64,000 nt of DNA, taken from positions 15,205 through 79,204 of the forward strand of contig SUUI01000006.1 in assembly GCA_015062605.1 (NCBI GenBank), in the 5' to 3' direction. The translations under genes were made by a program, and so were the position numbers. Under the pieces are notes generated by a model. That model saw only the letters and a program-made list of their open reading frames with translations, had not been told where the DNA came from and did no database searches. Numbering within the stretch: position 1 is the stretch's first letter; every line of letters begins with the position of its first letter. Shown here piece after piece: positions 10,400 through 64,000 of the stretch. This DNA is from Eggerthellaceae bacterium. Its GTDB lineage: Bacteria > Actinomycetota > Coriobacteriia > Coriobacteriales > Eggerthellaceae.

Positions 10400-10464
10400 A
10401 GAATGCTCCGTTCATGTAGTGATGTACTGAGACAACTGATATTAGCGTTGTTATTCTAGCATGC

Positions 10465-39365: not shown

Positions 39366-40085
39366 TTAATTTCGTGGTTCATCAGGTGCTAAATCGTATT
39401 TATGCTTGATGCGCTCAAGTTTTTTGCGCCATGGTGCATAGAGAACGAGTAAGAAGATGACCGTCGAGATGCCATTCGCCAAATCCAGAGGCAGACCAGC
39501 ACCGTATGCAAGCAATGCGGACTGCCACGTGATGGGATGAACATAGCCGATGATGTACCAGGAGTTCAAAAGGAAACCATACTCGAGAATCGGCGCGAGT
39601 AGACCATATCCATACAGAATCGGTTTGCGCTCGAAGGCGCCATGGTCTGCGAGCACGCCTGCAAGATAACCCATCAACCCGAACCCGTACATCTGCCATG
39701 GGGTCCACGGGCCCTGACCTAAGAAGAAGTTGGACAGAAGCATCGCAAGCGCCCCGACCATGAATCCAGAACGCCTACCGAAAATGATACCCGCCATGAT
39801 GGTGATGGCACCGACCGGCTGCACGTTCGGGATGACTGCGAAGACGATGCGCCCCGCAACGGCAAGCGCCGCGAGCACGACCGTGGGCATGATCTGCCGA
39901 AGCTGAGGACGCGATGCTTCAAAGCTCGCGAAGAACACGAGCACACTCAATAAAACCACGACCATCGTGAGCAACGCGGACTGATCCACCTGCATGAACG
40001 CAGCAGAGAGCAAGCTCATCGGAACGATGATGAGCGCTGGTATCTCCAGTTTCTGCCAGATATTTGCCATCGTGCCCTTCGTCAT
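39366..40085 (-). CDS. putative ECF transporter substrate-capture (S) component, specificity unknown (not CbiM-like)
   Basis: A 239-aa, very hydrophobic protein with about 6-7 TM segments. It starts 1 nt after the ECF ATPase stop. The assignment rests on context and topology only. Confidence 0.6.
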   Translation of the reverse strand: MTKGTMANIWQKLEIPALIIVPMSLLSAAFMQVDQSALLTMVVVLLSVLVFFASFEASRPQLRQIMPTVVLAALAVAGRIVFAVIPNVQPVGAITIMAGIIFGRRSGFMVGALAMLLSNFFLGQGPWTPWQMYGFGLMGYLAGVLADHGAFERKPILYGYGLLAPILEYGFLLNSWYIIGYVHPITWQSALLAYGAGLPLDLANGISTVIFLLVLYAPWRKKLERIKHKYDLAPDEPRN

Positions 40086-40086: not shown

Positions 40087-41574
40087 TCAGATGCCAGACT
40101 CCATTTCTGGACGAGTCCATGTCACAAAGAACCGATCGATCACGGGACGATAGAACAGATTCTCTGCGAAGAACAGAGAAGTCGGCTCCGTACTCACGAT
40201 CTGCCCGTCGAAGATCATCGATGTGGTATCCGCGACACGCGATGCGAATGCCAGGTCGTGCGTGACAAGGAGAACCGTCGTTCCATGTGCTGCAGCACGG
40301 CAAATCGCATCGGCAACGATGTACTTGGAACGGACATCTAAACCTTTGGTAGGCTCATCGACCATAAGCAACGCTGGTTTCGTGAGCATGATCTTCGCGA
40401 ATGCCAAGAGCTGTTGCTGACCGCCTGACAAGTCGTAAGGGTGCTGCCCAAGCACATGGTCGATATGGAGGTTCTTCGCCAGAACCTGAATGTCCTCATC
40501 GGTATAGCCGCAACCTTTTTGCCATTCGGCAAGCTCTTCAGCTGCCGTATCGCACACGAACAGCGACTTGGGGTCTTGTGGCAAAAGCGCCTGATTATCT
40601 TTAAGCAGATTCTTCAAAGAGCCGCGGTCTATCTTCATGATGCCTGCCATCGTGGAAAGAAGCGTTGATTTGCCGCTTCCGTTGCCACCAACAAGCGTAT
40701 GAACCGAGCCCTTCTTCAATGTGAAATCCAACCCGCGCAAAACATAGGGCAATTCGCGCTTGTAACGCACATACACGTCTTTGAATGTGACGGCAACATC
40801 CTCTCCCGAAAACGCGGGGGCGCATACGCCCTCCGCTCGAAAATCCACCGAAGATGCGCGTTCGTGAACCTCACGTCGATACGCTTCCACATCCCTATCT
40901 TGAACTTTTCCGTCCTTCATGACAGCGAAGACTGTAGCGTAATCGACCACGGTCTCCGGCTCATGCGTGACCATGAGAATAGTCAAGCCCAACTCGCGGT
41001 TGATACGGAAGAGCGCATGCAGGAAGTTCTTGGAAGCCACAGGGTCGAGTTGCCCTGTGGGCTCATCTAAAAGCAGGATGCGCGGGCGGAGCGCGAGAAT
41101 ACTCGCAAGGGTCAGAAGCTGCTTCTGACCACCCGAGAGCTCGTTCGTGGCATTATCCAGCCATGGCTCGATGCCAAAGAAGTGCGCTACCTCAGCCACA
41201 CGACGGTGCATCTCGTCTTGCGGGATCGCAAGGTTCTCTAACCCGAATGCCATCTCATGCCACACAGTGTCGCATACGATCTGATTATCAGGGCTTTGCG
41301 ACACATACCCGATAGTCTGTGCCGATTCGGAAGCAGAGAGCTCTTCGATCGGTCTTCCGAACACGCGGATGGACCCCTCGCGCACACCCGTAGGAGCAAG
41401 CTCGGGCTTCATATTGCGAAGAAGCGTGGTCTTGCCGCAGCCCGTGGCGCCCACGAGCAACGTGAGCGAACCTTCCTTCACGGTCCAATCTACGGGGCCT
41501 AGGATGAGCCTATCGCCATATGCGAACGTGAATCCAGAAACCTCGATGGCGGGGACATTCCTTACAGGCTCCAT
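40087..41574 (-). CDS. ECF transporter ATPase, fused EcfA-EcfA' (two ABC domains)
   Basis: A 495-aa ORF with two Walker A motifs (GATGCGKTT, GGNGSGKST), two signatures (LSGGQKQ, LSGGQQQ) and two Walker B motifs (LLLDEPT, LMVDEPT). Confidence 0.9.
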   Translation of the reverse strand: MEPVRNVPAIEVSGFTFAYGDRLILGPVDWTVKEGSLTLLVGATGCGKTTLLRNMKPELAPTGVREGSIRVFGRPIEELSASESAQTIGYVSQSPDNQIVCDTVWHEMAFGLENLAIPQDEMHRRVAEVAHFFGIEPWLDNATNELSGGQKQLLTLASILALRPRILLLDEPTGQLDPVASKNFLHALFRINRELGLTILMVTHEPETVVDYATVFAVMKDGKVQDRDVEAYRREVHERASSVDFRAEGVCAPAFSGEDVAVTFKDVYVRYKRELPYVLRGLDFTLKKGSVHTLVGGNGSGKSTLLSTMAGIMKIDRGSLKNLLKDNQALLPQDPKSLFVCDTAAEELAEWQKGCGYTDEDIQVLAKNLHIDHVLGQHPYDLSGGQQQLLAFAKIMLTKPALLMVDEPTKGLDVRSKYIVADAICRAAAHGTTVLLVTHDLAFASRVADTTSMIFDGQIVSTEPTSLFFAENLFYRPVIDRFFVTWTRPEMESGI

Positions 41575-42488
41575 ACGATGCGCTCCTTAATCTCCAAAAT
41601 GAAGGGAATAATCAAGAACAGAAGGTAAGGCAGGTAACCCCACCACACAATAAGCTCGCTGAGCTTTGGATAGTAGGTGAACTGCGTGCATGCCGCAATG
41701 GCGCAAACCGTGCTTATCACGATGAGAACGCCCATGATAGCCGCCATAACGCCATCGCGAGCGCGAAAGTCGCTTCTTTGATAGGTGGTGCGCTTCGGGG
41801 CAGCACCCCAACCGCGAGCCCTCATGGCCTCGGAAGTGTCAAGTGAGTCTTCCATTCCCCACCCCATGAGCACCGTGAGATCGCGCAAATACGTGCGGAC
41901 AGAATCCGCCCGCTTCGCGAAGAAACCCTTACTTGCGATAGCATCAGAAGTACCTTGCGAACCGAAGCCTACCTGATTATCAAGGTTGGCAGAGGTGCAG
42001 AATTCCTGCGTTGAACGTATCGACTTGGAACGTCGCATGAATTGCGGGACCAAGCGCAGAATCATCGTCACCATGAGTCCTATCGTGGGCATAACCCTAC
42101 CCGTAAGCTGCATCATCTTATCGCTCGTGAGTATATGCGAGAGGTTAGAGAACCACTGCATGATAGATACGAGCATGATTCCCATGCATAGGCCGTATAC
42201 AAGGCTTTCCAAATAGAAAGCGCTGTATCCGAACATGAACAGGACCGTCGATCCGCTTTGCGAGAATATCGGGTTCAGAAGCGTGATGATCAAAAGCAAT
42301 GGCAGCTGCCATGTAAGCGTTTTGAGCGCGGGACGCCATCCACGCAAGAAGATGTTATAGGCGATCGCCACGATGAAATTCATGGCCAGAAAGACCGGCT
42401 GGAACGCGGCCATTGTGAATACAAGCGCCGCAACCAGATAGATTGCGGCGATCGCAGGATGATATGTGTCAAAGGCTGTTCTGGTCAT
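41562..42488 (-). CDS. ECF transporter transmembrane (T) component, CbiQ/EcfT family
   Basis: A 308-aa polytopic ORF with the characteristic coupling-helix Ala-Arg-Gly motif (SEAMRARGWG). It overlaps the ATPase start by 13 nt. Confidence 0.85.
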   Translation of the reverse strand: MTRTAFDTYHPAIAAIYLVAALVFTMAAFQPVFLAMNFIVAIAYNIFLRGWRPALKTLTWQLPLLLIITLLNPIFSQSGSTVLFMFGYSAFYLESLVYGLCMGIMLVSIMQWFSNLSHILTSDKMMQLTGRVMPTIGLMVTMILRLVPQFMRRSKSIRSTQEFCTSANLDNQVGFGSQGTSDAIASKGFFAKRADSVRTYLRDLTVLMGWGMEDSLDTSEAMRARGWGAAPKRTTYQRSDFRARDGVMAAIMGVLIVISTVCAIAACTQFTYYPKLSELIVWWGYLPYLLFLIIPFILEIKERIVWSL

Positions 42489-42510: not shown

Positions 42511-43128
42511 TTACATGTCATCGTATTTCGTGACATAGTACCAACGAACCCTATCGCCATCGCTGAGCACATACGATCCGCAAGACATCATCGGTGTGTA
42601 ATCATTGACTGAATACATCCACCCGCTCGTTTTGCCGTAATCGTATTCCGAAAGACCGTTGATGGAGCGTACATATTCGCTGCTGCCACCGAAAGGCAGT
42701 CCCGTCGCCACTAAGGCATCGAAGACCGTTGCTCCCTCGTCAAGCTCGACCGTCATGTCCGCGAAGTATCCGCGATCGGCATTGGTCGCATCAACGTAAA
42801 TGTAAATCGAGATTGTTGCAGCTTCAGGCTCGGGTTCAGGCTCTGGCACGGGCTCCGGTTCGGAGCTCGATTCGCCAGATGGCGAAGATGCGGACGAGGA
42901 GCTCGACTCTCCCGACGATGGCTTCGCGGCCTCGTCGGAAGCAGCCTTCCCTCCCTCGCTTTCTGTTGCAGATTCGCCGGATTTCTTTTCAACTTGCTCA
43001 GTCTGTGCGGTTGGTTTGTCCTTGGTTGTCTTGAACAGATCACAACCGCACATACATGTGGAGCACAGGAGCACCAATAGACATGCGATAAATGTCCGCG
43101 TCAGTCTTTTCGGTGCTCCTGTTATCAT
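42511..43128 (-). CDS. DUF4430 (transcobalamin/intrinsic-factor C-terminal-domain-like) lipoprotein
   Basis: A 205-aa ORF with an AAGGAG RBS and a lipobox (STCMCGC|D). A Ser/Glu/Pro-rich linker is followed by ISIYIYVDATNADRGYFADMTVELDEGATVFDALVATGLPFGGSSEYVRSINGLSEYDYGKTSGWMYSVNDYTPMMSCGSYVLSDGDRVRWYY, the DUF4430 pattern as I recall it. Confidence 0.75.
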   Translation of the reverse strand: MITGAPKRLTRTFIACLLVLLCSTCMCGCDLFKTTKDKPTAQTEQVEKKSGESATESEGGKAASDEAAKPSSGESSSSSASSPSGESSSEPEPVPEPEPEPEAATISIYIYVDATNADRGYFADMTVELDEGATVFDALVATGLPFGGSSEYVRSINGLSEYDYGKTSGWMYSVNDYTPMMSCGSYVLSDGDRVRWYYVTKYDDM

Positions 43129-50240: not shown

Positions 50241-50316
50241 ATGTCCCCCTTCCTCTATACGTGCCACGCTTGCCAGAGCCGAGTTGTGCAAGCACCTTAT
50301 TACAGAAGAAGGGCCG

Positions 50317-50353
50317 CAAAACAAAAAACTGCGCGCACATAGAGTGCACGCAG
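50317..50353 (-). terminator. intrinsic terminator forming the expression platform of the riboswitch leader
   Basis: The minus strand reads CTGCGTGCAC-tcta-GTGCGCGCAG (one mismatch) followed by TTTTTTGTTTTG. It lies about 75 nt upstream of the 50240 start codon. Confidence 0.55.
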
Positions 50354-50424
50354 CCCGTATTCGCTACGTAAAAGCCAGGCTGACGCCCAGGTTGGACACA
50401 CGGTGATTCGCCGCAGTTTCCAGC

Positions 50425-50802: not shown

Positions 50803-52677
50803 TTAGGAAAGCACGATTATCTTTTGGTAAATCGATTCAATGACGTCTCGGGAAAGGGCCACAGGGAAGTTTGAAAGGCGCTGGGCATTGACAGAGGATA
50901 CAAGAGCCCCGATGTCAGCTAGCTTGCCAGAAATAGTTGTGGTAATGCCTAAATGGCCAACAAAACCCTCGAAAGCCTTAAGACCGTCAATGGGCATTAC
51001 GCTCTCGTTTCCAATCATCAATGCCGCGATTTCGGAAAGCTTTTCTTGCAGGACTTCGTCTCCACAATCAATCAACATCTGCCAGCAATGTGGCATGCAC
51101 ATAGCAACAGCGTGACCATGGGGAATTCCGTATAGACCTGTTAATTTGTAGCTCATGGCGTGAGGCGCAGTGGTGGTTGTGAGATTGATGGCCTTTCCTG
51201 CTTGATTGGCTGCACGCATGATTTCGGCGGCAGCACCAACATCGCCAGTAAGATAAGCCTCTGCATTTGCCATAATTGCGGGAATCGCAATCTTGGAATG
51301 CATCCTGCTCTCCGCACATGACTTCCGAGACCAATATGATTCAATTGCCTGGCAAAGCGCATCAAGCATCGTACACTTCTTTTGGTATGCCGGCAGGCCA
51401 AAAAGAACCGACACGTCAAGTAGCACGACGTTTGGAAGCAGACACTCATTGGTTATCGATGCCTTCGCGCCATCAATATAGCAAACAGCAAAATGAGTCG
51501 ATTCGCTACCAGTCCCGGCCGTCGTAGGAACAGCAACATGGAGAACACCAGAATATGGCAGATGCCCATTTTTTAAAGCAGCGCCATCCGAACTCTCGGG
51601 CATTACGACGAGCTGTTTAACGCATTTCGCAACATCAATGGCACTACCCCCACCAATGCTTATCAATGAGTCGCATTCGCCTATGTAGAAAGCCGTACGA
51701 GCTTGAGCAACATCATCGAAGCTCGGATTCGGTGAATAATCCGTGAATAGCTCATATGCAATGTTTGAATCATCAAGCCATTGTTTCGCAGCAAAGCTCG
51801 CGAAATGCTTGGATGCGATCACGAGCGGCTTTCGCATCCCCAATGCTGCAAACAAATCCGCTGGTCGGACAGCATCACGCAAAGCACCTACGGCGCACCC
51901 ATCTACCAGCCCGATTGAGTCGCCAGAAACCTCATATACAGGCTGCTGCGCAAAATCGAATGTTCGTATTCCAGCCGAAACGCGCTCTAGATCATCGGGC
52001 GTATCAACTTCCTCAACGTAATGGCCTTCATAGCTGAAAGCAGCAACGTGCATGTCCGCGAAAACTGCGTTAGCGGCATTCTCCGCATATACTCCAGTGT
52101 CGCCCGTATCAACGAAACGCTCGACCGCATCAAACCACGTCTGCGTAGCTTCCTTGGACAGCTTGTAGAACGGCTGAAACGCGAAGCAATCCTTATCGAA
52201 AATCCTTACCGATACTTCGCGGACTTCACCATCAATCACACGAGCCTTGAAATCCTTCTCCGGCTGTGGCAGAGATGCGTTCACGGATCCCAACGTTGGC
52301 AAATCCGAGTCGATGACCATCTGGGCATAGGCAGCATCGAACACCAAATCGCCATGCAACATGAGGATGTCACTCCCCTGCAACAAATCGCGAGCAAGCC
52401 ACATCGAGTAGATGTAATTGGTCTTGTCGTATACAGGGTTACTTACAAACGAAATCGAACAGCCAGCTTGCACAAATGGTTCCGCTTCAACAGCAAGCAA
52501 CTCCGCAAAGGGGCCGGTCGTAACAACGAACTCATTTATCCCGCATGCATGTAAGATCCTCAGTTGACGATGGAAGATAGTCTCGCCATTGCCAAGACGT
52601 ACCATCGACTTGGGTTTATCCTTCGTCAATTCGCCCAATCGACTTCCAAGGCCCGAATTGAAAATGAGCGCCTTCAC
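50803..52677 (-). CDS. bifunctional LicC-like sugar/phospho-alcohol nucleotidyltransferase (N-terminal) and iron-containing alcohol dehydrogenase (C-terminal, phosphonoacetaldehyde reductase-like)
   Basis: A 624-aa ORF. The N-terminus MKALIFNSGLGSRLGELTKDKPKSMVRL carries the GxGxRL nucleotidyltransferase signature. The C-terminal half has Fe-ADH motifs (ISIGGGSAIDVAKC, PTTAGTGSE, HGHAVA). Confidence 0.8.
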   Translation of the reverse strand: MKALIFNSGLGSRLGELTKDKPKSMVRLGNGETIFHRQLRILHACGINEFVVTTGPFAELLAVEAEPFVQAGCSISFVSNPVYDKTNYIYSMWLARDLLQGSDILMLHGDLVFDAAYAQMVIDSDLPTLGSVNASLPQPEKDFKARVIDGEVREVSVRIFDKDCFAFQPFYKLSKEATQTWFDAVERFVDTGDTGVYAENAANAVFADMHVAAFSYEGHYVEEVDTPDDLERVSAGIRTFDFAQQPVYEVSGDSIGLVDGCAVGALRDAVRPADLFAALGMRKPLVIASKHFASFAAKQWLDDSNIAYELFTDYSPNPSFDDVAQARTAFYIGECDSLISIGGGSAIDVAKCVKQLVVMPESSDGAALKNGHLPYSGVLHVAVPTTAGTGSESTHFAVCYIDGAKASITNECLLPNVVLLDVSVLFGLPAYQKKCTMLDALCQAIESYWSRKSCAESRMHSKIAIPAIMANAEAYLTGDVGAAAEIMRAANQAGKAINLTTTTAPHAMSYKLTGLYGIPHGHAVAMCMPHCWQMLIDCGDEVLQEKLSEIAALMIGNESVMPIDGLKAFEGFVGHLGITTTISGKLADIGALVSSVNAQRLSNFPVALSRDVIESIYQKIIVLS

Positions 52678-52680
52678 GAC

Positions 52681-53811
52681 CTAGCTCTCCTGCCTCATTG
52701 CTGAGATCTTAGCCATCATCGCATACTTGTTTTCCTGCGGAGTTGAAGTCGGCCGCCCAAGATTGGCACGAGAACCCTGATGTGTAGTGATGACAAGCGC
52801 AGACTTCGCGGATCCCCTCAGTTCTTTCATTCCCGCTTTTATCTCCTCTACGGTCTTTGCCTCGTGAACATCATCAAAACCAGAAGCGCGCAGTATTCCT
52901 GGCACATCAACCTGTTGGGCAACGTTCGGTTGCCCGCCCACTGACTCATGCGCGCCATTTACGTTGAGTACATACTTAAAGTTCGCTGGCATCTTCTGCG
53001 CCATAACGGGAAACGCACCCATATGCATGAGGAAGGAACCGTCACCGTCAATGCACCACACGTTCGCATTGCACCCAAGCGCCATGCCGAAAGCAATCGA
53101 GGAAGTATGGCCCATGCCTCCAACAGTTAGAAAATCGTTGGCATGACCCTGGCCACGGCGCTCCCGGATTTCGAATACCTCACGCGATGTTTTCCCAGTA
53201 GTCGACACAATCAAATCGTCCTCGCCTAAACAATCGAGAACGACCTCAAGCGCCTCTTCGCGGCTCAACAATGCTCCATTGTTTTCTGCTTTAAACGGAT
53301 AGCCTCCAAAGAGGCCTTTGCGAACAACAACGGCAACGGGACGCGACTCAGCTCGCATGGTTCCTAGTAGCGAGGCAAGCTGATTACGCCAATCATCGGC
53401 ATCAAGCACCTCGTGCGGCACGCCCATGGTCTCAAGCAATGTGCAAGTCACTTTGCCCTGCTTCACGTGCTGCGGTTCGTCGTGGACACCTGGCTCTCCA
53501 CGCCATCCAATAACCAGCAACATCGGAATCGAATACACGTCAGGATCCGCAATCGAAAGCAGCGGATTCACGATATTGCCCTCACCGGAATTCTGCATAT
53601 ACACGACGGCGGACTTTCCAGTTGCCACATGGTAACCGCATGCAATGCCAACCGCGTTACCCTCATTCGCGGTAATGATATTTCGCTCAGATGGAGCATT
53701 ACCAAAAACACACGCGCAAAGATTCTTCAGTAGACTATCAGGTACACCTGCGAATAGATCGAGTCCCTCACCTACTAGCGCATCATAGAATTCCTTTGGA
53801 TCAATAGCCAT
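52681..53811 (-). CDS. ppd: phosphonopyruvate decarboxylase
   Basis: A 376-aa ORF, MAIDPKEFYDALVGEGLDLFAGVPDSLLKNL..., with the TPP motif IDGDGSFLMHMG...LNVNGAHESVGGQP. It sits directly after the PEP mutase gene. Confidence 0.85.
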   Translation of the reverse strand: MAIDPKEFYDALVGEGLDLFAGVPDSLLKNLCACVFGNAPSERNIITANEGNAVGIACGYHVATGKSAVVYMQNSGEGNIVNPLLSIADPDVYSIPMLLVIGWRGEPGVHDEPQHVKQGKVTCTLLETMGVPHEVLDADDWRNQLASLLGTMRAESRPVAVVVRKGLFGGYPFKAENNGALLSREEALEVVLDCLGEDDLIVSTTGKTSREVFEIRERRGQGHANDFLTVGGMGHTSSIAFGMALGCNANVWCIDGDGSFLMHMGAFPVMAQKMPANFKYVLNVNGAHESVGGQPNVAQQVDVPGILRASGFDDVHEAKTVEEIKAGMKELRGSAKSALVITTHQGSRANLGRPTSTPQENKYAMMAKISAMRQES

Positions 53812-53814
53812 CGC

Positions 53815-55119
53815 TTACTCCTTGGGAATCAAGGTAAGGACTTCTTTAATGGGAAGAATCATGTCATCTGCTTCGAGCGAACGATGACATTCGAGAATCT
53901 TCTGGGCGACATCTCTCATCGCCACATAGGCCGCACGGGTTAGATGATTCGCATGGATGATGATATTTGCGCCGGCATCAGCGAGTTCTTCCTCGGTAAA
54001 CTGGTTGTATGATGTGGGCACAAGGATAATAGGCACCTCTGGCCATTTCTCACGAAACAGCCGCATGAACTCAAGGATTTCGGAACCATCCTTCTCCTTG
54101 GAGTGAATCATAATGCCGTCAGCCCCACCCTCTTCAAGATAGATATCAGCACGGGAAAGAGCATCTTCCATCGATTGTCCGGCAATAAGCGACTCAATAC
54201 GCGCAAATATCATGAAATCGCGTGTTCTCTGAGCCCTTTTCCCTGCCGCTATTTTTGCAGCAAAAGCATGGGGGTCATCCTGCGTCTGCTTCACCTCGGT
54301 ACCAAACAATGAATTCTGTTTGAGCCCGGTTTTGTCCTCAATAATAACAGCCGAGACACCTAAACGCTCGAGTGTCCGCACATTATGAGAGAACCATTCG
54401 GTCTTTCCACCCGTATCGCCATCAAGGATGATGGGCTTGGTAGTAACTTCCATGATTTCTTCGATGGTGCGAACACGACTCGTGAAGTCAACAAGCTCGA
54501 TATCGGGTTTGCCTTTAAAGGTTGAATCGCAAAGACTCGAAACCCACATACCATCATAGGTCCGTACTTGTCCAGTTTCGGGATCGGTAAAAGAGGCATT
54601 TTCAACAATCAATCCAGATAAGCCATTCGATGCCTCGATAATCCGAATCGGCTTTTTTAGCGTGAGCAGGCGACGTAGCGAACCACGCCTTTGCTCTGGG
54701 GAACCCAAAAAAACAAGTAGGTCCTTTTCAAGTTGCGTTGCAGAAATCCCTCTTGTATAGGGAATCTCAACAAGCTCTCCGCCCCATTCAGAAAGAATCT
54801 CGATGACTTCTTCACGTACGCGACTCTGCACGCCCTCACGCCAATCATCGCCGTGTACAACATAATCAGGCTTTAGCTCCCGTAATACCTTTGCGTAAGA
54901 AAGGGTATCCTGCTCGACAACTTTAACGACGTTTTTAAGATTTGCATAAACTGCTTTGCGTGTTGAAGTGTCAAGCAATGGAGTACGCTTGTAGCTCGCG
55001 ACCACCTCATCTGTAAGCACTCCCACAAAAACGTCGCCGAGCTTTGACGCTTCTTCGATAATATTCAAAATGCCTTCATGCACAATATCCGATGAGATTG
55101 AGACATAAACAGTTGCCAT
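53815..55119 (-). CDS. pepM: phosphoenolpyruvate mutase with an N-terminal cytidylyltransferase-like domain
   Basis: A 434-aa ORF. The PepM-diagnostic EDKX5NS motif is present (IIEDKTGLKQNSLFG), together with DGDTGG. The N-terminal 130 aa or so are TagD/HxGH-fold-like (VYVSISSDIVHEGIL). Confidence 0.85.
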   Translation of the reverse strand: MATVYVSISSDIVHEGILNIIEEASKLGDVFVGVLTDEVVASYKRTPLLDTSTRKAVYANLKNVVKVVEQDTLSYAKVLRELKPDYVVHGDDWREGVQSRVREEVIEILSEWGGELVEIPYTRGISATQLEKDLLVFLGSPEQRRGSLRRLLTLKKPIRIIEASNGLSGLIVENASFTDPETGQVRTYDGMWVSSLCDSTFKGKPDIELVDFTSRVRTIEEIMEVTTKPIILDGDTGGKTEWFSHNVRTLERLGVSAVIIEDKTGLKQNSLFGTEVKQTQDDPHAFAAKIAAGKRAQRTRDFMIFARIESLIAGQSMEDALSRADIYLEEGGADGIMIHSKEKDGSEILEFMRLFREKWPEVPIILVPTSYNQFTEEELADAGANIIIHANHLTRAAYVAMRDVAQKILECHRSLEADDMILPIKEVLTLIPKE

Positions 55120-55297
55120 TGCTTAACGCCTTTCTGTCCTATATGAAACAGATGATAATCATTGTGTATGTATTCCGCAGCTTCCGCCATTGTAATAATT
55201 ATTGATTCCCACAATACAATGGGGGAACGATATCGTATTGCTGAAGAACATTTCCAATTATTCAACCAATATACGCAGAAGACACTCGCTGTTCTTG

Positions 55298-56128
55298 TTA
55301 GATGCTTTCAACATCGTTTTTCCATGCCATTATTCCGTGATCGGACCTTTGATCAACTGGTGGCAACTGCATATAATTGCCGTAAACCTGCGTCAGTATT
55401 TCATCCCAATTTTTTGACGCAAGAAATCTCCTGCCCTCGAAATCAACTTCAACCAATTCATCGAAATAGCTTCTTGGAAACAATTCTTTCTCGCCATATA
55501 CGTTCCAAGCCATCTGTGCAACATACTCCGACTTATCGTAGGATAATTTTTTTGCGTTATTATCAATATTCTTAATAATCGAATGGGTTTTGACAAACGG
55601 ACTTAGTACTGATTTTATCGATGCCCTAATTGCTTGCTTTACCTTATTTTCGCTCTTCATCGTAAAACAATATGCTATTTGAAGCTTAAAATCACGTCGC
55701 CTAAGATAGCTTTTAAAAACCTTTACGTCAGAAGGAGCACCATCGAGAGGAAAGATGTCAATCCATAGATATTCAGTTGCAAGATCCGCGTATTGGTAGG
55801 TTCTTGCAAGAAATGTACTATCGCATAGTTTTGTAAAAGGGAATGGAAACGGGCTATTACTCCAGTTTACAAGCCGATATCGAGTACCCCTACTATGCAG
55901 CGGATAGTCCTTCAACAGCTTCTCGTAATCAGGTCGTGGCATGACTACGTCAATATCATCATCCCAGGGAATAAAACCTTTGTGTCTAACTGACCCAAGC
56001 AGGGTCCCCGCCGCAAGACTATACCGTAACCCTTTTAACCTACAAAACGAATCGACCTCTTCCAGCAAACCCAAAATCGCTGCTTGGATTTCTTCCTTGG
56101 TCATTGGGTTTGGATTCTGCATTTTCAC
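55298..56128 (-). CDS. licD: LicD family phospho-head-group transferase
   Basis: A 276-aa ORF with LRYSLAAGTLLGSVRHKGFIPWDDDIDVVMPRPDYEKL, the LicD signature including the DxD. Confidence 0.85.
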   Translation of the reverse strand: MKMQNPNPMTKEEIQAAILGLLEEVDSFCRLKGLRYSLAAGTLLGSVRHKGFIPWDDDIDVVMPRPDYEKLLKDYPLHSRGTRYRLVNWSNSPFPFPFTKLCDSTFLARTYQYADLATEYLWIDIFPLDGAPSDVKVFKSYLRRRDFKLQIAYCFTMKSENKVKQAIRASIKSVLSPFVKTHSIIKNIDNNAKKLSYDKSEYVAQMAWNVYGEKELFPRSYFDELVEVDFEGRRFLASKNWDEILTQVYGNYMQLPPVDQRSDHGIMAWKNDVESI

Positions 56129-56252: not shown

Positions 56253-57668
56253 TCACTTCGTCGCGATTCTTTCTTTAATCCAAGCAAATACTTCTGCAAG
56301 TGATTTCCGATTCACCACATAATAGAAAGCCAGCAATACCAACACGAGAGGTATTCCAGTAATCGTACCGAATACAAGCGCAATTGCTATAAACAAATAC
56401 GAAATCACAAGAAGCGATATCGTCTGCAAACTCCGATTGCATTTACACTTCGTCGCAAAATGTGTTTCAAGGAACACTGCCCTAAACTGAACAGCTAAAA
56501 GCATTGATATGACGACTGCTTCGATACTCCGCAGAAACACCGCAGCTATTATGCCGAGAAGGATTGCCGATACAACCGAAATAATATTGGTTCTAAGCAG
56601 CAGCTTCTCTTCCCTTAACACCTTGCTATAAGTCGTTCCCTGAATATCCATTTTCGTATTGTAAATGCAGAGCGGAAGCAGGATGGCAAGATATATAAAG
56701 CTTTGAGTGTACTGAGGGAGCCATATTGACAACAAATAGCAGATTGGATAGTAAGCAATGAAAGAAATCGGAAGGAGCACGTTCAGTAGATTAGCAAGTA
56801 TTCCAAAGGCCTTCTCTAATTCTTCTTTTGAGCTCTGTCGCAATGCCGGGAAAAGCACCATGGATAGCTGCGACATAAACACTATAAAAAAATTGACAAT
56901 TGACAGAGCAAATGACACTTCGCCAAAAGAGTCAATTCCCCAAGTACCTTCAATAAGAAAACGTCCAAAACCTATTATTAGCATTGAAGCAACATTTGAT
57001 AGCGTCAGCTTGATTCCAACCTTAATGCTTGTGAAGAGCTCAGTAAGCGCTAGCCGGATGCCGATGAAATCACCACTTAGTATCGTCCGAGCCTTGAATA
57101 AGCAATATCCCAGTGCGACAAAACGGGAAAGAACATACCCCAATATATACAGCTGAAAAACATCTACTTGCAAGACGACCAAAAAAACAAGTTCAACCAA
57201 AAAGCTGCATTTTTCGAGCATAAGCGAATGCGAAAAGACCTTTGTCTCGTTTATTGCCTGAAAAACAAAACCTAAGAAACCAGCCGCGTTATTAATAATC
57301 AAAAAGATACAGCAGGCAATAAGAACAAATACCCTGTCCAGATCAGGAACTACTAACAGGCAATAAGCTGCTATAAGAACAGCAATTGTCGACTGCCCGG
57401 CAATCCCAAGTACAAATTGGGATTTGATACTACCGTTATCAAGCTCTTCTCGTGTTTCGCCGCCATGAATCAAATAGACACCGTCATTTATTCCGAAATG
57501 AAAGAAGCCTACGTAAGAAGAATACAGCAAGAATAATTGCCAGTACCCAAACTCCGTAATGCCAAGAAGCTTTGGAACAATAAACGATGTCATCAAGCTG
57601 AGCGCAAAAGCAATGCCTTGCGCAATTAATGCAGTTTTCAGATTGCTCGTTAGCTTAGCAACGTCCAT
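56253..57668 (-). CDS. Wzx-type oligosaccharide flippase (polysaccharide biosynthesis protein, MOP superfamily)
   Basis: A 471-aa ORF with about 12-14 TM segments and a typical N-terminus (TALIAQGIAFALSLMTSFIVPKLLGITEFGYWQLF). Confidence 0.8.
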   Translation of the reverse strand: MDVAKLTSNLKTALIAQGIAFALSLMTSFIVPKLLGITEFGYWQLFLLYSSYVGFFHFGINDGVYLIHGGETREELDNGSIKSQFVLGIAGQSTIAVLIAAYCLLVVPDLDRVFVLIACCIFLIINNAAGFLGFVFQAINETKVFSHSLMLEKCSFLVELVFLVVLQVDVFQLYILGYVLSRFVALGYCLFKARTILSGDFIGIRLALTELFTSIKVGIKLTLSNVASMLIIGFGRFLIEGTWGIDSFGEVSFALSIVNFFIVFMSQLSMVLFPALRQSSKEELEKAFGILANLLNVLLPISFIAYYPICYLLSIWLPQYTQSFIYLAILLPLCIYNTKMDIQGTTYSKVLREEKLLLRTNIISVVSAILLGIIAAVFLRSIEAVVISMLLAVQFRAVFLETHFATKCKCNRSLQTISLLVISYLFIAIALVFGTITGIPLVLVLLAFYYVVNRKSLAEVFAWIKERIATK

Positions 57669-58970: not shown

Positions 58971-59864
58971 TTATCGTTTACCGATTCTTGCTGCCAGCTT
59001 TTTCGCATAATAACGATAGAGCACAAGGTATTTCACACGCAACTCTCTCCCTGCCGCAAGAAAAAAATGGTTATTGCGTATCTTACGCATAATTCTTCCG
59101 CGAATTCCGGCCGTGTAATCAACAAAGGAATCCGTTTCGCTATTGCGCACCTCAAGACGAACAATTCGGTTATGGTTAATATTCTTGTCAACCCACACAA
59201 GCAAGAGAGGTTCGGCTAAAAAACCATCGACTCTCGGAATTCTCTCCTCTCCTCTTTCTTGTAGAGTTTGATCATATTCTTTTAAAACTTCAAACAGCCA
59301 TCTTGAGTAAGAAAAAAACACTTTCGAGCTGGCAATGAACATGTTACCCCATACCGTATATTTATCCGCCATAATCGCATCGAACGAATCCCTGTACTCA
59401 GGAAATTTTCTGTAAATGATATTTCGTATGGTCACCCAATGAGAATCCTGTTTTTCATCGGAAATGCCCGTATGCAATTCGCTAAGCCCAGGATACTTCA
59501 CAGAACGAAATGGAAGTATGATGTCATTATTTCGAAGAAAGCCTTCGGCATCCTTCATCCGCAACACATCATCATGCCAAGTTTTTGAGTCCTTCTTATA
59601 ATTAAAAAAGAACCTTCTATAGTGAGACAGACCCATTGCGCCTCCTTCCTTCTCAAATAGAGACAAAGCGCTATATTGTGCGGTCAACTCACAATACCAA
59701 GGGTTCTGGTTCGAAATGTTATCGTTAGGCTGATTGTCGCAGTACCAACCTAGTTCCATCGCCCTATCGTTAGAAACAAGTTCTCCGACTTTTATGACAA
59801 CGTAATCCTCGGGCAACCAATTATTGTTAAATTCTTTATGGGTAGCAACTATCATCTTCGACAT
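58971..59864 (-). CDS. DUF4422-type putative glycosyltransferase
   Basis: A 297-aa ORF, MSKMIVATHKEF...YCELTAQY...HYRRFF, the pattern typical of DUF4422 proteins in polysaccharide loci as I recall it. Confidence 0.6.
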   Translation of the reverse strand: MSKMIVATHKEFNNNWLPEDYVVIKVGELVSNDRAMELGWYCDNQPNDNISNQNPWYCELTAQYSALSLFEKEGGAMGLSHYRRFFFNYKKDSKTWHDDVLRMKDAEGFLRNNDIILPFRSVKYPGLSELHTGISDEKQDSHWVTIRNIIYRKFPEYRDSFDAIMADKYTVWGNMFIASSKVFFSYSRWLFEVLKEYDQTLQERGEERIPRVDGFLAEPLLLVWVDKNINHNRIVRLEVRNSETDSFVDYTAGIRGRIMRKIRNNHFFLAAGRELRVKYLVLYRYYAKKLAARIGKR

Positions 59865-60765
59865 TTATGGCTCCTGCTTTGTCTTTATGCATGTTCTTTA
59901 GCTTTGCTAGCAATCGATACTCAATCATCGAATAAGAAGAACACAGCCTGAAAAGAAATCTTTTTACTTTTCCACATCCTCGTATTGCGTAATTGAAATA
60001 TTCCCTCGACTCCAGCATCAATCTATGCTTTTTAACCGAAGAAATATACTTTTGTGTGGTTGCTCCATGGACGTGTCTATATGTTGCTGATGTAATCAAG
60101 CATTCCTCCATCTTGGCATTTTTCACATGCCATGCAAGAATCCTCTCCTCACAATACAAAAACGTGTGTTCATCCAAATCGTTGATAGTTTTTAAAAAGG
60201 AGTCTCGCGCTGCAAAAAAGGAGCCTGGGAGTACTTCCACCGGCAGATAGCTATCAGCACTTGGAATGATGCTTTTCCTCTCTCGTTGTAATTTCCTAAA
60301 GAGCCAAAAGCACATGAGGCAATCAGCATAGAATGTTGGAATATCCCAACACGGATTATCCGCAACTGAGTAATCGATGTTTAGCATAACTGGCCCAAAT
60401 ACTGGATAGTCAGTATTTGCGTAGCACTTTTTTATTGCCAAAAGAGTATCGTTGGAAAACTCAACATCAGGATTTGCGATGCACACAATATCGACAGGGA
60501 AATTGTCCCGCAAATAACGAATTCCAATATTGTTGCCAGATGAATAACCGCCGTTATTGCCAGCAGAAATCACGTGAATATTCTGGCTCTGAAACTTGGA
60601 CAAAACACCGAGAGACTCGTTACTCGAACCATTATCGACTACCACAATCTCGTCGGCGTCATCATAGTATCTAACGTTTTTTAAGAGCTCTTGGGTCATT
60701 GTATAGTCGTTATAATTCAGGATAACAATTCCTAAACGTACTGATACATTTGATCCCATGTTCAC
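59836..60765 (-). CDS. family 2 glycosyltransferase
   Basis: A 309-aa ORF with LGIVILNYNDYTMT...IVVVDNGSSNES...GYSSGNNIG...ANPDVEF motifs. Confidence 0.8.
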   Translation of the reverse strand: MNMGSNVSVRLGIVILNYNDYTMTQELLKNVRYYDDADEIVVVDNGSSNESLGVLSKFQSQNIHVISAGNNGGYSSGNNIGIRYLRDNFPVDIVCIANPDVEFSNDTLLAIKKCYANTDYPVFGPVMLNIDYSVADNPCWDIPTFYADCLMCFWLFRKLQRERKSIIPSADSYLPVEVLPGSFFAARDSFLKTINDLDEHTFLYCEERILAWHVKNAKMEECLITSATYRHVHGATTQKYISSVKKHRLMLESREYFNYAIRGCGKVKRFLFRLCSSYSMIEYRLLAKLKNMHKDKAGAINVEDDSCYP

Positions 60766-61868
60766 ACAATCTTCTCGTTAAGTAATAAATCGGCAATGCG
60801 CATGCTTGCACGTCCATCGCCATACGGATTATTTGCACGGCTCATTCGAATGTATTCTTCATTATCCTCCAGAAGCATTGTAAATGCTTCGTAAATAGTT
60901 TTCGTGTCTGTACCAACAAGTTTTAATGTTCCCGCCGCTAACCCCTCTGGTCTTTCCGTAGTATCCCTCATGACAAGAACAGGTTTTCCTAAACTTGGAG
61001 CCTCTTCTTGAATGCCTCCCGAGTCGGTTAATATGAGATAGCTTGCATTCATGTAGTTATGAAAATCAATTACTTCTAAAGGTTCAATTATGCGAATTCT
61101 GTCGCTTCCCTTCAGCTCTTCATCGGCTATTTCTCTAACAATTGGATTCAGATGTATCGGATATATCACCTTTATGTCTAAATGCTCTTCAACAACTCGT
61201 TTTATTGCCCTGAACATATGTCTCATGGGTTCCCCAAGATTTTCACGACGATGCGCAGTAACCAAAATAAGCTTATCATCGCCGACCCAATCAAGGTTTT
61301 CGGCTCTATAAGAATCTGACACTGTAGTCTGCAAAGCATCAATTCCCGTATTGCCTGTAACAAATACCCTCTCCTCGCATTTACCCTCTCGAATGAGGTT
61401 GTCGGCGGCTATCTGTGTTGGAGCAAAGTGATATCGGCAAATAGAGTCAACTGCTTGTCGATTGAACTCTTCCGGCCACGGAGAATCAATATCATACGTT
61501 CTCAGCCCAGCTTCAACATGACCTACCGGAATGTGCATATAAAAGCAAGCTAATGCGGCGGCGAATGACGTTGTTGTATCGCCGTGTACGAGAACAATAT
61601 CAGGTTTGCAATCAGCAAGCACACTCTTAACCCCAGACAAAACCATGTTAGTAATGTCAAATAAGGTTTGTCTGTCGCGCATTATTGCCAAATCATAATC
61701 AGGGACAACGTCAAAAACATCAAGCACTTGCTTCAACATCTCTTTGTGTTGACCAGAGACACAGACGGCTACCTCAAAATCCTGCACGCGCCTCTTGAGT
61801 TCATTTACAAGAGGACACATTTTTATAGCTTCTGGCCTAGTTCCAAAAATTAGCAGGATTCGCTTCAT
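60762..61868 (-). CDS. wecB: UDP-N-acetylglucosamine 2-epimerase (non-hydrolysing)
   Basis: ORF 60762..61886. The conserved start MKRILLIFGTRPEAIKMCPL is the Met at 61868, giving an ATGA overlap with the upstream stop. Other motifs are VHGDTTT, DSGGIQEEAPSLGKPVLVMRDTTERPE and NPYGDG. Confidence 0.9.
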   Translation of the reverse strand: MKRILLIFGTRPEAIKMCPLVNELKRRVQDFEVAVCVSGQHKEMLKQVLDVFDVVPDYDLAIMRDRQTLFDITNMVLSGVKSVLADCKPDIVLVHGDTTTSFAAALACFYMHIPVGHVEAGLRTYDIDSPWPEEFNRQAVDSICRYHFAPTQIAADNLIREGKCEERVFVTGNTGIDALQTTVSDSYRAENLDWVGDDKLILVTAHRRENLGEPMRHMFRAIKRVVEEHLDIKVIYPIHLNPIVREIADEELKGSDRIRIIEPLEVIDFHNYMNASYLILTDSGGIQEEAPSLGKPVLVMRDTTERPEGLAAGTLKLVGTDTKTIYEAFTMLLEDNEEYIRMSRANNPYGDGRASMRIADLLLNEKIV

Positions 61869-63064
61869 TTCATTTCCCCAACACATTTATATGCAGCTAA
61901 AAGTCGTTTTTCCATAGTCGGCCAAGAGTATCGTTCCTCAAATAGATTCCGCTCCTTCGTGCTGATAGCTTCCCAATCGCTTTTCCGCGACTGAAGATTA
62001 GCAATCGCGTCGGCAATCGCCGCGGAACCAGGATTGCAAGTTACGCCTATACCGTGTTCATCAATTACGCAATCCATTCCCGTTCCGTGAAACATTATTA
62101 GAGGCTTGCCTAATGACAAGGCTTCATAAAACTTATTTGGAGCAGCATATTTATGATTTCGGATTGCAGGATCGTACAAAGCAACCATTATGTCGCACGA
62201 ACGTTCCAGCGCTATAGCTTCAGCATAAGTCATTTTCCCATAGAAAAAAACATTCTCGTGATATTCCGAAAACTCCTTCACGTAATCCTCTAAGGTCCCG
62301 AAGCCCCCTATATGCAATTCAGCATCATCGGCAATTGCTACCGCGTCGAGCAACTGCTTTATACATCTGTCTTCCACCAAGTTGCCAACATATGCAACTT
62401 TTGTTTTTCCACTAGATGATTTCAGAATGAAGGATTCTGGAACCGTAGGTTCCCGCAGCTGTTCCGCACTTGGAGAGTTGTGAACTACATACAAGTTGGC
62501 CGGTTTTGCGTCCTTTATTTGTTCCTTTCTTTGCTCGCTGCAAATAATAGTAGCATCTGCTTTGCTGATTATTCGATCTTCTAATCTCTTGAAGCAACGC
62601 CTCATTATCGAAGGAACATCAACAGTGTCTGAATAATAGTCGTAAATGTCGTAGATGATTCGTTTACCATGTAGTTTCTTAGCAATTGCCGCAGGTATTC
62701 CCGTCTGCAAGTCACATGCATGAATAACGTCGAAGCTTCCACGATTACCAATAAGCCATGATAAAACTCGAATCTCAAACTTTAGTAATGGAAAGAAATT
62801 CCTTTTTATCCCACCGCCCCAAAGCGCAGGTATTCCAAGTCGAATAATTGGTACCTTTCCGTCAGGCAGGCAGAGAGAGCTCTCCTCGTATTTCTTTTTT
62901 GGAAATCTTTCCCATGCCAAAATCTTCAAATCATAGCCGCCCCGAAATGCAATTGTATTGGCTTCTTTCTCGACTCTCGGATCAGGGTTGACCCCATTCG
63001 TTCTTATGAGCAAGACTCTCAATTTGCAATCCTCCAACCTCGAATCAAAAACCGAATACTGCAA
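61865..63064 (-). CDS. GT4 (group 1) glycosyltransferase
   Basis: A 399-aa ORF with a GT-B C-terminal half carrying the E-x7-E-like region (NKFYEALSLGKPLIM). Confidence 0.8.
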   Translation of the reverse strand: MQYSVFDSRLEDCKLRVLLIRTNGVNPDPRVEKEANTIAFRGGYDLKILAWERFPKKKYEESSLCLPDGKVPIIRLGIPALWGGGIKRNFFPLLKFEIRVLSWLIGNRGSFDVIHACDLQTGIPAAIAKKLHGKRIIYDIYDYYSDTVDVPSIMRRCFKRLEDRIISKADATIICSEQRKEQIKDAKPANLYVVHNSPSAEQLREPTVPESFILKSSSGKTKVAYVGNLVEDRCIKQLLDAVAIADDAELHIGGFGTLEDYVKEFSEYHENVFFYGKMTYAEAIALERSCDIMVALYDPAIRNHKYAAPNKFYEALSLGKPLIMFHGTGMDCVIDEHGIGVTCNPGSAAIADAIANLQSRKSDWEAISTKERNLFEERYSWPTMEKRLLAAYKCVGEMK

Positions 63065-63182
63065 GACAATTCTTGAAGTGAAATACCATCATCATATATC
63101 GGGAGAAGTTGTCAACTCGCGCCTGATAATAAAGAAAATGACTGTTTCATACTTTCTAGAAACAACAATTTCATTTATTGAT

Positions 63183-64000
63183 CTATTTCTTTTTCAGGAA
63201 AAGATTCTCATATTCTGCAACGATAAAGCGCCATGAATAGCGCTCCGAAATTACAAGCGTCGATTTTTCATCAAAGCGCCGAATGGATATCTCGTCAAGA
63301 CGTTCAGCAATTCCAATTGTTTTTCTTAAGCTTCCATTGTCCTTGGTCCAATAGAGGGCGGAATCTTCAGCAACTTCCCTATTGAATCCAATATTGAGAA
63401 GAAGGTTTAGCCGAGTTGATGCGAGCGCCTCCAACAAACTCGGGTTCGTGCCTCCCACTTCATGGCCATGAAGGTACGCAAAGGCGCACTCACGAATCTT
63501 TTTCAAGAGCTCTTGGTCGTACACGGTCCCAACAAATTTAATTCTCGGATCACTCAGAAAACCTGTTTTCCCCTGAAGACGTTCCAAGAAAGATTCTTCG
63601 GTATCGGTAATAAGAGCAAAAGAGCGGCTAGTCTCAGAAGACATGAACTCGCGTATCATGGTCTCATAGTTGTTCTCTGGAACAAAGCGCCCAACCACAA
63701 GATAGTATCCATTAGGCGCAAGACCTTTTTCCGCAAGCCAGCTCACGAAACATGGGTCATCATCGCGCAATCTTGACTTGTGAATATCTGCGCCATAGGC
63801 AATATATTTCGTCTTGGGAGAAAAAACCGAGTATTCGCTACGTATGTATCTTTCTATATTTTTGCTATCACATATCAGCAAATCGGAATGCTTGACCATA
63901 CCTCGCTCTGAGAGCTTCCAATACTTACGTATGGGTAGACTCCATTTAGCTCTAAGCCACTCATGTCCATCAGGATTAACATATAGCAATCCTCCGAGCT
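63183..64000 (-). CDS. glycosyltransferase (DUF1972 N-domain plus GT1 C-domain type); the 5' end lies beyond the window
   Basis: ORF 63183..63989. The frame stays open to nt 64000 (..LGGLLYVNPDG..). The C-terminal half reads HGHEVGGTNPSLLEALA, typical of rhamnosyl/glycosyl transferases of this type. Confidence 0.7.
   Translation of the reverse strand, partial: LGGLLYVNPDGHEWLRAKWSLPIRKYWKLSERGMVKHSDLLICDSKNIERYIRSEYSVFSPKTKYIAYGADIHKSRLRDDDPCFVSWLAEKGLAPNGYYLVVGRFVPENNYETMIREFMSSETSRSFALITDTEESFLERLQGKTGFLSDPRIKFVGTVYDQELLKKIRECAFAYLHGHEVGGTNPSLLEALASTRLNLLLNIGFNREVAEDSALYWTKDNGSLRKTIGIAERLDEISIRRFDEKSTLVISERYSWRFIVAEYENLFLKKK

Follow-up and report, generated by a model that had tools for sequence, protein, structure and literature searches.

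The window analysed here, a 64,000-nucleotide stretch from the metagenome-assembled genome (MAG) of an Eggerthellaceae bacterium (contig SUUI01000006.1), carries a Wzy-type polysaccharide operon on its minus strand, and the last four genes of this operon probably form a phosphonyl-tailoring branch that installs 2-hydroxyethylphosphonate (HEP). These genes encode a LicD-family transferase, a phosphoenolpyruvate (PEP) phosphomutase (PepM), a phosphonopyruvate decarboxylase (Ppd) and a fusion of a LicC/PntC-like nucleotidyltransferase (NT) domain with an iron/zinc-type alcohol dehydrogenase (ADH) domain. In the proposed pathway, PepM would convert PEP to phosphonopyruvate, Ppd would convert phosphonopyruvate to phosphonoacetaldehyde (PnAA), the C-terminal ADH domain of the fusion would reduce PnAA with NAD(P)H to HEP, the N-terminal NT domain would join HEP and CTP to give CMP-HEP, and LicD would place the HEP-phosphonyl group on a sugar hydroxyl in the polysaccharide repeat. 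The product would be a phosphonate ester ending in a free hydroxyl and not in an amine. PepM also carries a second nucleotidyltransferase, a Fom1-like cytidylyltransferase (CyT) domain, which would be non-catalytic in this scheme, leaving the LicC-like domain as the working activating enzyme. While the first two steps follow curated family assignments, we infer reduction, activation and transfer from active-site residues, genomic context, natural fusions and precedent. An initial annotation of this DNA had proposed the same course from PnAA through HEP and a nucleotide-activated form to LicD-mediated attachment to the polysaccharide, and it is supported here by active-site residues, the lack of a transaminase, synteny and natural fusions.

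Organization of the phosphonate genes

Open reading frame (ORF) translations place four co-directional genes on the minus strand between positions 56128 and 50803, exactly the span given by the initial annotation (Table 1). They are transcribed in the order LicD, PepM, Ppd and NT-ADH fusion, and the last three are spaced by gaps of 3 nt. Pfam domains confirm the fusion of a LicC-like nucleotidyltransferase with an Fe-ADH that had been reported earlier, with NTP_transferase/NTP_transf_3 at residues 2-122 and Fe-ADH and ADH_Fe_C at residues 274-619. Two earlier details needed amendment. LicD had been described as following the fusion gene; it is indeed present, but stands first and not last in the direction of transcription. 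The annotation also recognized a single nucleotidyltransferase, the LicC-like domain, and overlooked the Fom1-like CyT domain; as PepM is itself a fusion with this domain, the cluster holds two nucleotidyltransferase domains. The protein sequences of the cassette recur on contigs of several metagenome assemblies.

Assignment of PepM, Ppd and LicD

PepM scores above the TIGR02320 equivalog cut-off (378.6 versus 319.55 bits) and matches Pfam PF13714 with an E-value of 7.5e-50, and its phosphomutase domain matches PDB entries 5unc and 1m1b at E ~1e-38. The translation contains IIEDKTGLKQNS, an EDK-X5-NS motif (EDKTGLKQNS) that the initial annotation had also noted; the EDKXXXXXNS motif sets Ppm apart from other members of the isocitrate-lyase superfamily (PMC6697681). 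Ppd likewise lies above the TIGR03297 equivalog cut-off (419.1 versus 312.5 bits) and carries PF02776 and PF02775, and the thiamine pyrophosphate (TPP) motif attributed to it, GDG...N, is present in the translation as GDGSFLMHMGAFPVMAQKMPANFKYVLNVN. On the basis of this curated family membership, PepM is assigned the formation of the C-P bond, from PEP to phosphonopyruvate, and Ppd the conversion of phosphonopyruvate to PnAA. The LicD protein matches PF04991 with an E-value of 2.3e-44 over profile positions 1-227 of 227; against Mf1, the one NCBIfam equivalog, its 106.5 bits fall short of the cut-off of 225. We predict that it takes the HEP-phosphonyl group of CMP-HEP and joins it to a hydroxyl of a glycan.

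The ADH domain as a predicted phosphonoacetaldehyde reductase

The best PDB match of the ADH domain is a sulfoacetaldehyde reductase (6jko/6jkp, E 2e-33), an enzyme whose substrate is the sulfonate analogue of the substrate proposed here, and in an AlphaFold model of the fusion the domain superposes on Fe-ADH structures with a Foldseek target-normalised TM-score of ~0.82. Both hallmarks of the Fe-ADH fold are present, namely the NAD site (GGGS, TAGTGSE) and the four metal ligands, with D439, Q443, H506 and H520 aligning with ligands D192, Q196, H261 and H275 of 6jkp. In a 2026 study of PhpC, Lys157, Thr256 and Arg349 hold the phosphonate and Tyr264 is also among the residues that hold HEP; conservation of this tyrosine is strict among PhpC PnAA reductases, and sulfoacetaldehyde reductases have phenylalanine in its place (PMC13576164). 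We mapped these positions through the 6jkp alignment combined with the residue numbers that PMC13576164 gives for P. fungorum PhpC. In this mapping, Y510 of the window protein aligns with F265 of 6jkp, and K405 and T502 sit at offsets matching PhpC K157 and T256. Residues K405, D439, T502, H506, Y510, H520 and R600 are invariant in all 190 family members, and position 443 is either Gln or His. In addition, the ADH gene adjoins pepM and ppd, the synteny by which Lockwood et al. (2022) recognize PhpC. The ADH domain is thus a predicted PnAA reductase making HEP.

A catabolic role as an HEP dehydrogenase (PMC13576164) was considered for this domain and rejected, as no phnX, phnA, phnY or phnW lies nearby and the ADH is both fused to and operonic with biosynthetic genes. 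Such a role may fit one ADH-only locus among the relatives (L057), where the gene adjoins an Aminotran_5 gene and PepM is missing.

Two nucleotidyltransferase domains

For the NT domain, the best match among solved structures is LicC (1jyk, E 1.3e-7), and the PntC domain of Tde1415 (6pd1) is found among the later matches (E 2.3e-5). The GxGSR motif, K23, D110, E223 and D225 are invariant, as are G9, G11 and R13, giving the domain the GxG(S/T)R motif, catalytic lysine and metal-binding acidic residues that characterize PntC. The structure of Tde1415 with CMP-bound 2-aminoethylphosphonate (AEP) shows Glu104 and Glu196 hydrogen-bonding the AEP amine (PMC6697681). The window domain lacks the AEP-type glutamate, as His108 aligns with Glu104. 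When the domains were aligned with MAFFT, 64 of 64 ADH-linked ones had His here and 40 of 44 Tde-like AEP domains had Glu. A HMMER search of 1.84 billion representatives yielded 173 close relatives of the NT domain (E <= 1e-30); among the best 150 of these 173, His108 occurs in 147, fusion to ADH in 63 and fusion to a transaminase in none. The NT domain is therefore not an AEP-type PntC, and His108 is consistent with a different head group; we predict that the domain is an HEP cytidylyltransferase. The AlphaFold model of the 624-residue fusion (pLDDT 90.9, pTM 0.89) is compact and has no disordered linker, which fits a bifunctional unit and says nothing on channelling. Foldseek matches to the whole model were mostly due to the ADH domain and gave no further information on the NT domain.

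The second nucleotidyltransferase, at residues 3-132 of PepM, matches the Fom1 CyTase domain 5x3d with an E-value of 4.5e-47 and ~60% identity. Of the two signatures of such domains, the RTEG(I/V)ST(S/T)-type is retained, reading YTRGISAT in the window versus YTPGISST in Fom1. The other, HxGH, whose two histidines are critical for catalysis according to a description of the superfamily (PMC6060094), is lost, with HPGH of Fom1 aligning with HEGI in the window PepM. Among the 120 closest homologues (down to 67% identity), whose named members are Eggerthellaceae, Gordonibacter and Adlercreutzia, HxG[I/V] is present in ~105, and HxGH is intact in 50 of 50 scorable CyT domains from other phyla. The homologue of Yeguia hominis, for example, has an intact HSGH. 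A pseudogene or an assembly error behind HEGI was rejected, as the identical 434-residue PepM is found on 9 contigs from several sources and the substitution is common to ~105 homologues. The CyT domain of this clade is probably catalytically impaired but retained, most likely as a non-catalytic structural or regulatory remnant. Since the clade has lost the second histidine of HxGH, we infer that the LicC-like domain is the working activating enzyme.

A different change is seen in NT-CyT-PepM triple fusions (~18 loci within L053-L080, for example L066:7954-9960), in which HxGH is intact and the RTxGIST-type motif has become YSxDxKY. From its sequence, this is a second, independent degeneration of the CyT domain.

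The cassette in related genomes

The comparative set consisted of 80 related species-level genome loci. The ADH adjoins Ppd and/or PepM in ~70 of them, LicD lies within 10 kb in 37, and loci of different phyla share this grouping with PepM and Ppd and the lack of a transaminase. The five-domain cassette (NT, CyT, PepM, Ppd and ADH) recurs across phyla in shuffled fusion arrangements. The most direct counterparts of the window, with the arrangement [CyT-PepM]-Ppd-[NT-ADH], number ~31 loci and come from Bacillota, Actinomycetota, Bacteroidota, Mycoplasmatota and a Thermoplasmata archaeon. The triple fusion [NT-CyT-PepM], with its degenerate RTxGIST motif, is accompanied by separate ADH and Ppd in 18 loci; a PepM without CyT is paired with NT-ADH in 5 loci; and CyT-PepM, ADH and Ppd occur without an NT domain in another 5. 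NT-ADH is in turn joined to LicD in five 50%-identity clusters and elsewhere to a TagF-like transferase or to CyT. These larger proteins (P0310, P0316, P0332, P0337, P0371, P0404 and P0437) are of the NT-FeADH-LicD, NT-FeADH-TagF-like-MptE-like and NT-CyT-FeADH types; one NT-FeADH-LicD fusion has two LicD domains, and the NT-FeADH-TagF-like-MptE-like fusion is 1381 residues long. Because natural fusions join the reductase, the activating enzyme and the transferase, the three would belong to one pathway.

The transferases that adjoin the cassette vary and include LicD, Glyphos_transf, CDP-alcohol phosphatidyltransferase and a YidC-like-sulfatase protein. In a Thermoplasmata archaeon (L043) and in the complete genome of Mycoplasmatota bacterium WC30 (L044), the cassette occupies positions 7582-11750 with like order and spacing, and the sharing of the same cassette by an archaeon and a wall-less lineage of bacteria implies lateral transfer of the module. 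In Gordonibacter sp. An230, a 1334-residue protein with YidC-like (60KD_IMP) and Sulfatase (LtaS/EptA-type) domains is encoded directly after the cassette (L092:14455-18459), and giants containing 60KD_IMP likewise flank AEP-type clusters in two further loci (L089 and L090). The 60KD_IMP-sulfatase giants may be an unrecognized phosphonyl transferase family.

Search for an aminotransferase

The initial annotation had reported that no AEP transaminase (AEPT) is encoded in the window, and both Pfam calls and tblastn agree. No aminotransferase family was present in the precomputed Pfam calls for all called genes of positions 1-64000 and of ~8 kb past the 64000 end, and a tblastn search of the window with an AEPT probe, the Aminotran_5 gene beside a PntC gene on a frameshifted Treponema-like contig (L089), gave no match at E <= 1. 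A search of the rest of the genome had been proposed as a further check; the survey covered ~72 kb of genome in all, and the ~8 kb beyond the window end likewise held no aminotransferase family.

A class-V aminotransferase occurs in 2 of the 80 related loci, one of which has no PepM and looks catabolic. The other, in a Bacilli MAG (L029:4377-5267; PF00266, E 3e-20; 27% identity to the AEPT probe), lies ~1.4 kb upstream of a group made up of LicD, PepM, Ppd and separate genes for NT and ADH. This locus may make both AEP and HEP, or its split fusion may be decaying.

Alternative explanations

Several points weigh against HEP as the installed group. The case for it is an argument from sequence throughout. 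TIGR03405, the only phosphonate-linked Fe-ADH model, gives the ADH domain 126.3 bits, far under its 423.7 cut-off, and the lactaldehyde reductase model scores it equally well (128.1 bits). The domain is thus not an equivalog of the TIGR03405 subfamily and is, by whole-domain score, an ordinary class-IV Fe-ADH, and for this reason the assignment as a PnAA reductase depends on a few residues and on context. Among these residues, the invariant R600 falls only within a few residues of the PhpC R349 position, where the alignment is gapped, and at the second metal ligand the domain shares Gln with sulfoacetaldehyde reductase, where the modelled PhpC has His. The Glu/His contrast of the NT domains may partly reflect ancestry, because two clades are being compared, and the AEP-type set consists of the Treponema-type relatives of one protein only. 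The division of labour proposed for the two nucleotidyltransferases may not be general, since most other phyla keep HxGH beside an NT domain. For the last step, the literature searched yielded no account of a LicD enzyme that moves a phosphonate. Finally, a transaminase or an HEP-modifying oxygenase could lie outside the ~72 kb inspected.

That last point is what would be needed for the cluster to end in AEP, with the transaminase elsewhere in the genome and the ADH in a secondary role, for instance the detoxification of surplus aldehyde. Among cell-surface phosphonates AEP is far ahead in frequency, with 56% of ppm neighbourhoods (PMC8942020), the view of this genome is confined to ~72 kb, and the related Bacilli locus does hold an Aminotran_5 gene beside its NT and ADH genes. 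In the window, however, the ADH and the activating enzyme are translated as one protein, whose gene begins 3 nt after Ppd, the amine-binding glutamate is missing from the NT domain, 78 of the 80 related loci have no AEPT-like gene, and none of the best 150 of 173 NT relatives is a transaminase fusion, so that we regard an AEP product as highly improbable. It is nearly as improbable that HEP is made only to be converted further, to methylphosphonate, hydroxymethylphosphonate, 1,2-dihydroxyethylphosphonate or 2-hydroxypropylphosphonate. HEP is a branch-point intermediate of several pathways, and Nitrosopumilus makes methylphosphonate esters from it (PMC8942020, PMC9381506); yet the operon and 20 kb on either side contain no gene for a cupin/HEPD/MpnS-like protein, a radical-SAM methyltransferase or a 2-oxoglutarate (2OG) oxygenase, and the 45 neighbour clusters found most often around the 80 loci include none of these HEP-modifying families.

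If HEP is the head group, its activation could still be the work of the Fom1-like domain, with the LicC-like domain activating another head group, for instance a phosphate ester or a different phosphonate, or using another nucleotide. Taken alone, the Fom1-like domain would be a textbook HEP cytidylyltransferase. It is ~60% identical to the CyTase of Fom1, the only enzyme shown to make CMP-HEP according to the account in PMC6697681, it keeps YTRGISAT and is under purifying selection, five loci have CyT-PepM, ADH and Ppd without an NT domain, and in most phyla both domains have intact motifs. Set against this are the replacement by Ile or Val, in ~105 of 120 homologues, of a histidine critical for catalysis (PMC6060094), the finding that the NT domain is always joined to ADH or CyT-PepM, both enzymes of the pathway, and in some proteins to the transferase as well, and the five loci that pair NT-ADH with a PepM lacking CyT; on this evidence we consider activation by the Fom1-like domain in the window distinctly unlikely. 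A departure from the proposed scheme that is unlikely to a lesser degree concerns the acceptor, which might be a teichoic-acid-like polymer, a glycolipid or a glycoprotein in place of the Wzy-dependent polysaccharide, with the phosphonate made as proposed. In other genomes the cassette adjoins TagF-like, CDP-alcohol phosphatidyltransferase or YidC-sulfatase-type transferases, in Gordonibacter An230 it sits among housekeeping genes without a polysaccharide locus, and glycoproteins bearing phosphonates are reported from marine bacteria (PMC8931226). In the window, by contrast, the cassette and LicD end a string of genes that begins with Wzz, a kinase and a priming transferase and that holds Wzy.

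The surrounding polysaccharide locus

The LicD-PepM-Ppd-NT-ADH segment is the 3' end of one co-directional polysaccharide gene string, which in full reads Wzz, a tyrosine-kinase-like ATPase, a NusG-like protein, a priming transferase (Bac_transf), four glycosyltransferases, a UDP-GlcNAc 2-epimerase, a Wzy-like protein, a 471-residue protein and the cassette. Its first part was read from the gene tables of 178-kb and 82-kb public contigs, where the Bac_transf priming transferase, NusG-like protein, tyrosine-kinase-like ATPase and Wzz lie past the window end. The initial annotation had called this a Wzx/Wzy locus. Wzy passes its family cut-off, if barely, and is called likewise in the precomputed annotation; Wzx is not confirmed by any family match. 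The 471-residue polytopic protein is a possible Wzx flippase by its topology and position in the locus; it had no Pfam, NCBIfam or PDB match even at E <= 1, phmmer against the related loci was negative, BLAST showed no similarity to the bona fide Polysacc_synt protein of an Adlercreutzia locus, and no Polysacc_synt or MOP family domain was recognized in it.

The G+C content is 54-60% in most of the window, 41-44% over the glycosyltransferase, Wzy and LicD genes (54-64 kb) and intermediate, ~50-51%, over the PepM-Ppd-ADH genes. This pattern suggests a mosaic, horizontally acquired locus in which the phosphonate cassette has a distinct history. The operon plausibly ends at the hairpin past the fusion gene; the hairpin is weak evidence for this, because the region holds no more such sites than expected from shuffling, and in a scan for promoters and terminators the counts did not exceed those in shuffled sequence. 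Beyond it, the giant lectin/CbiK protein and the ECF genes look like a surface-anchored corrinoid or metal capture system.

Table 1. Features of the window, with positions counted from its first nucleotide
Feature	Position	Strand	Basis and remarks
LicD-family phosphotransferase	55298..56128	-	276-aa ORF, called as 274 aa; PF04991; DDDID motif in translation
PepM protein, 434 aa	53815-55119	-	CyT and PEP phosphomutase fusion
Fom1-like cytidylyltransferase (CyT) domain of PepM, residues 1 to ~135	54715..55119	-	PF01467; 5x3d match
PEP phosphomutase domain, residues ~146-434 (stop codon counted)	53815..54684	-	TIGR02320; EDKTGLKQNS; PDB 5unc/1m1b
Phosphonopyruvate decarboxylase (Ppd), 376 aa	52681..53811	-	TIGR03297; TPP_enzyme_N and TPP_enzyme_C; GDG...N motif
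NT-ADH fusion, 624 aa	50803-52677	-	Pfam
LicC/PntC-like nucleotidyltransferase (NT) domain, residues 1 to ~245	51943..52677	-	PF00483 and PF12804; 1jyk, 6pd1
Fe/Zn-type (class IV) alcohol dehydrogenase domain, residues ~247-624 (stop codon counted)	50803..51939	-	PF00465 and PF25137
DUF4422 glycosyltransferase, GT2, UDP-GlcNAc 2-epimerase, GT4, DUF1972 glycosyltransferase (cut by window end)	58971..64000	-	Pfam
Wzy-like polymerase (O-antigen ligase family), called as 422 aa	57692..59026	-	PF04932, 31.9 versus cut-off 31.7 bits
471-aa polytopic membrane protein between Wzy and LicD	56253..57668	-	~12 hydrophobic segments; flippase position
Terminator-like hairpin, 13-bp stem and T-run	50316..50356	-	~450 nt downstream of fusion gene
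Giant protein, 2384-aa ORF called as 2356 aa	43170-50324	-	Six Ricin-B lectin repeats; CbiK/CbiX cobalt-chelatase-like residues 1857-2136
DUF4430 protein, then ECF-transporter components	42511-43128, 41562-42488, 40087-41574, 39366-40085	-	Follow giant protein

Relation to known systems

The closest analogue in logic is Tde1415 of Treponema denticola (Rice et al. 2019, PMC6697681; 6pd1), a PntC-AEP transaminase fusion. Both it and the window fusion have 624 residues and join an N-terminal LicC-like domain to a PnAA-converting enzyme, and Tde1415 also adjoins PepM, Ppd and LicD-like or glycan genes, so that the shared logic would be to make, CMP-activate and transfer a head group. They differ in the fusion partner, which is an Fe-ADH leading to HEP in the window and a class-V aminotransferase leading to AEP in Tde1415, and in the exchange of Glu104 for His108, and their NT domains are only distantly similar (E 2.3e-5). 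In chemistry, the closest analogue is the Fom1/FomC/Fom2 part of the Streptomyces fosfomycin pathway (Cho et al. 2017, as related in PMC6697681), which has in common with the window a CyTase-PepM fusion, Ppd, an Fe-ADH-type PnAA reductase and CMP-HEP as the activated intermediate. In that account, Fom1 converts HEP and CTP to CMP-HEP, which serves as a transient handle for Fom3 methylation and is later hydrolysed on the way to a small-molecule antibiotic. The window, in contrast, has no Fom3, FomD or Fom4, contains LicD and a glycan locus, and carries HEGI where HxGH would be expected.

An HEP conjugate has been purified from Stackebrandtia exopolysaccharide, as summarized in PMC8942020 and PMC6697681. 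By the description in PMC8942020, PhpC-type (HEP) ppm neighbourhoods and the Stackebrandtia nassauensis/Glycomyces system (Yu et al. 2014, as related there) combine Ppm, Ppd and Fe-ADH without AEPT, as the window does, and HEP on a surface glycan is their predicted or observed product. The host in that case is an aerobic actinomycete rather than an anaerobic Coriobacteriia MAG. The LicC/LicD phosphocholine pathway of Streptococcus pneumoniae likewise pairs a LicC-fold cytidylyltransferase with a LicD that decorates a cell-wall glycan; there, choline is imported, whereas the window would make its phosphonate de novo and has no choline kinase or transporter.

Comparison with PepM-neighbourhood classifications, a check proposed in the initial annotation, shows that the locus fits the catalogued HEP/PhpC type (PMC8942020), to which Li and Horsman (2022) assigned 8.5% of the 434 ppm neighbourhoods in their set, and LicD-type ('choline phosphotransferase') and nucleotidyltransferase genes have been noted beside pepM-aepY-phpC (Lockwood et al., PMC9381506). 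The earlier remark that HEP-bearing glycans are rarely reported is accordingly true of isolated compounds, but not of genomes, where PhpC-type neighbourhoods with LicD-like genes are catalogued (PMC8942020, PMC9381506). The pathway type has therefore already been predicted from genomes, and this locus adds to it. We found neither the NT-ADH fusion nor the His/Glu contrast nor the HxG[I/V] clade described in the literature searched. What is modestly new is the likely pseudo-cytidylyltransferase together with a candidate HEP-specific PntC subfamily, with the NT-ADH fusion as a fresh detail.

Two linked proposals go further and, taken jointly, are tentative and in our judgement rather doubtful. 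One is that the Fom1-like domain of Coriobacteriia might be a conserved pseudo-cytidylyltransferase (HxG[I/V]) that acts as a nucleotide- or CMP-HEP-sensing domain or as a scaffold for PepM, with a distinct His108 LicC-fold subfamily serving as the dedicated HEP cytidylyltransferase. The other is that the HEP cassette might be a horizontally mobile module that plugs into LicD, TagF-like, CDP-alcohol and sulfatase-type transferases.

Significance

Phosphonate decorations render surface glycans phosphatase-resistant and alter their charge and antigenicity, and a major part of the high-molecular-weight phosphorus in the sea is made up of HEP esters. To our knowledge, very few producers of HEP esters are known and no glycan-directed HEP pathway has been characterized biochemically. 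As an HEP ester ends in a neutral hydroxyl, where AEP and phosphocholine end in a cation, the polymer predicted here would show a different surface to phages, lectins and host immunity. The locus and its many relatives in cultured gut and rumen anaerobes, with Adlercreutzia sp. ZJ304 (GCA_011039075.1), Gordonibacter sp. An230 (GCA_002159915.1) and Yeguia hominis NSJ-40 among the carriers, provide testable material, including a candidate HEP-specific cytidylyltransferase and a single-residue specificity hypothesis (His versus Glu), and the natural fusions would fix the order of the pathway steps; the value of the locus lies in the experiments that it enables. Should the cassette prove to be the mobile module that we tentatively propose, HEP esters would be a common and overlooked surface chemistry of gut and rumen anaerobes.

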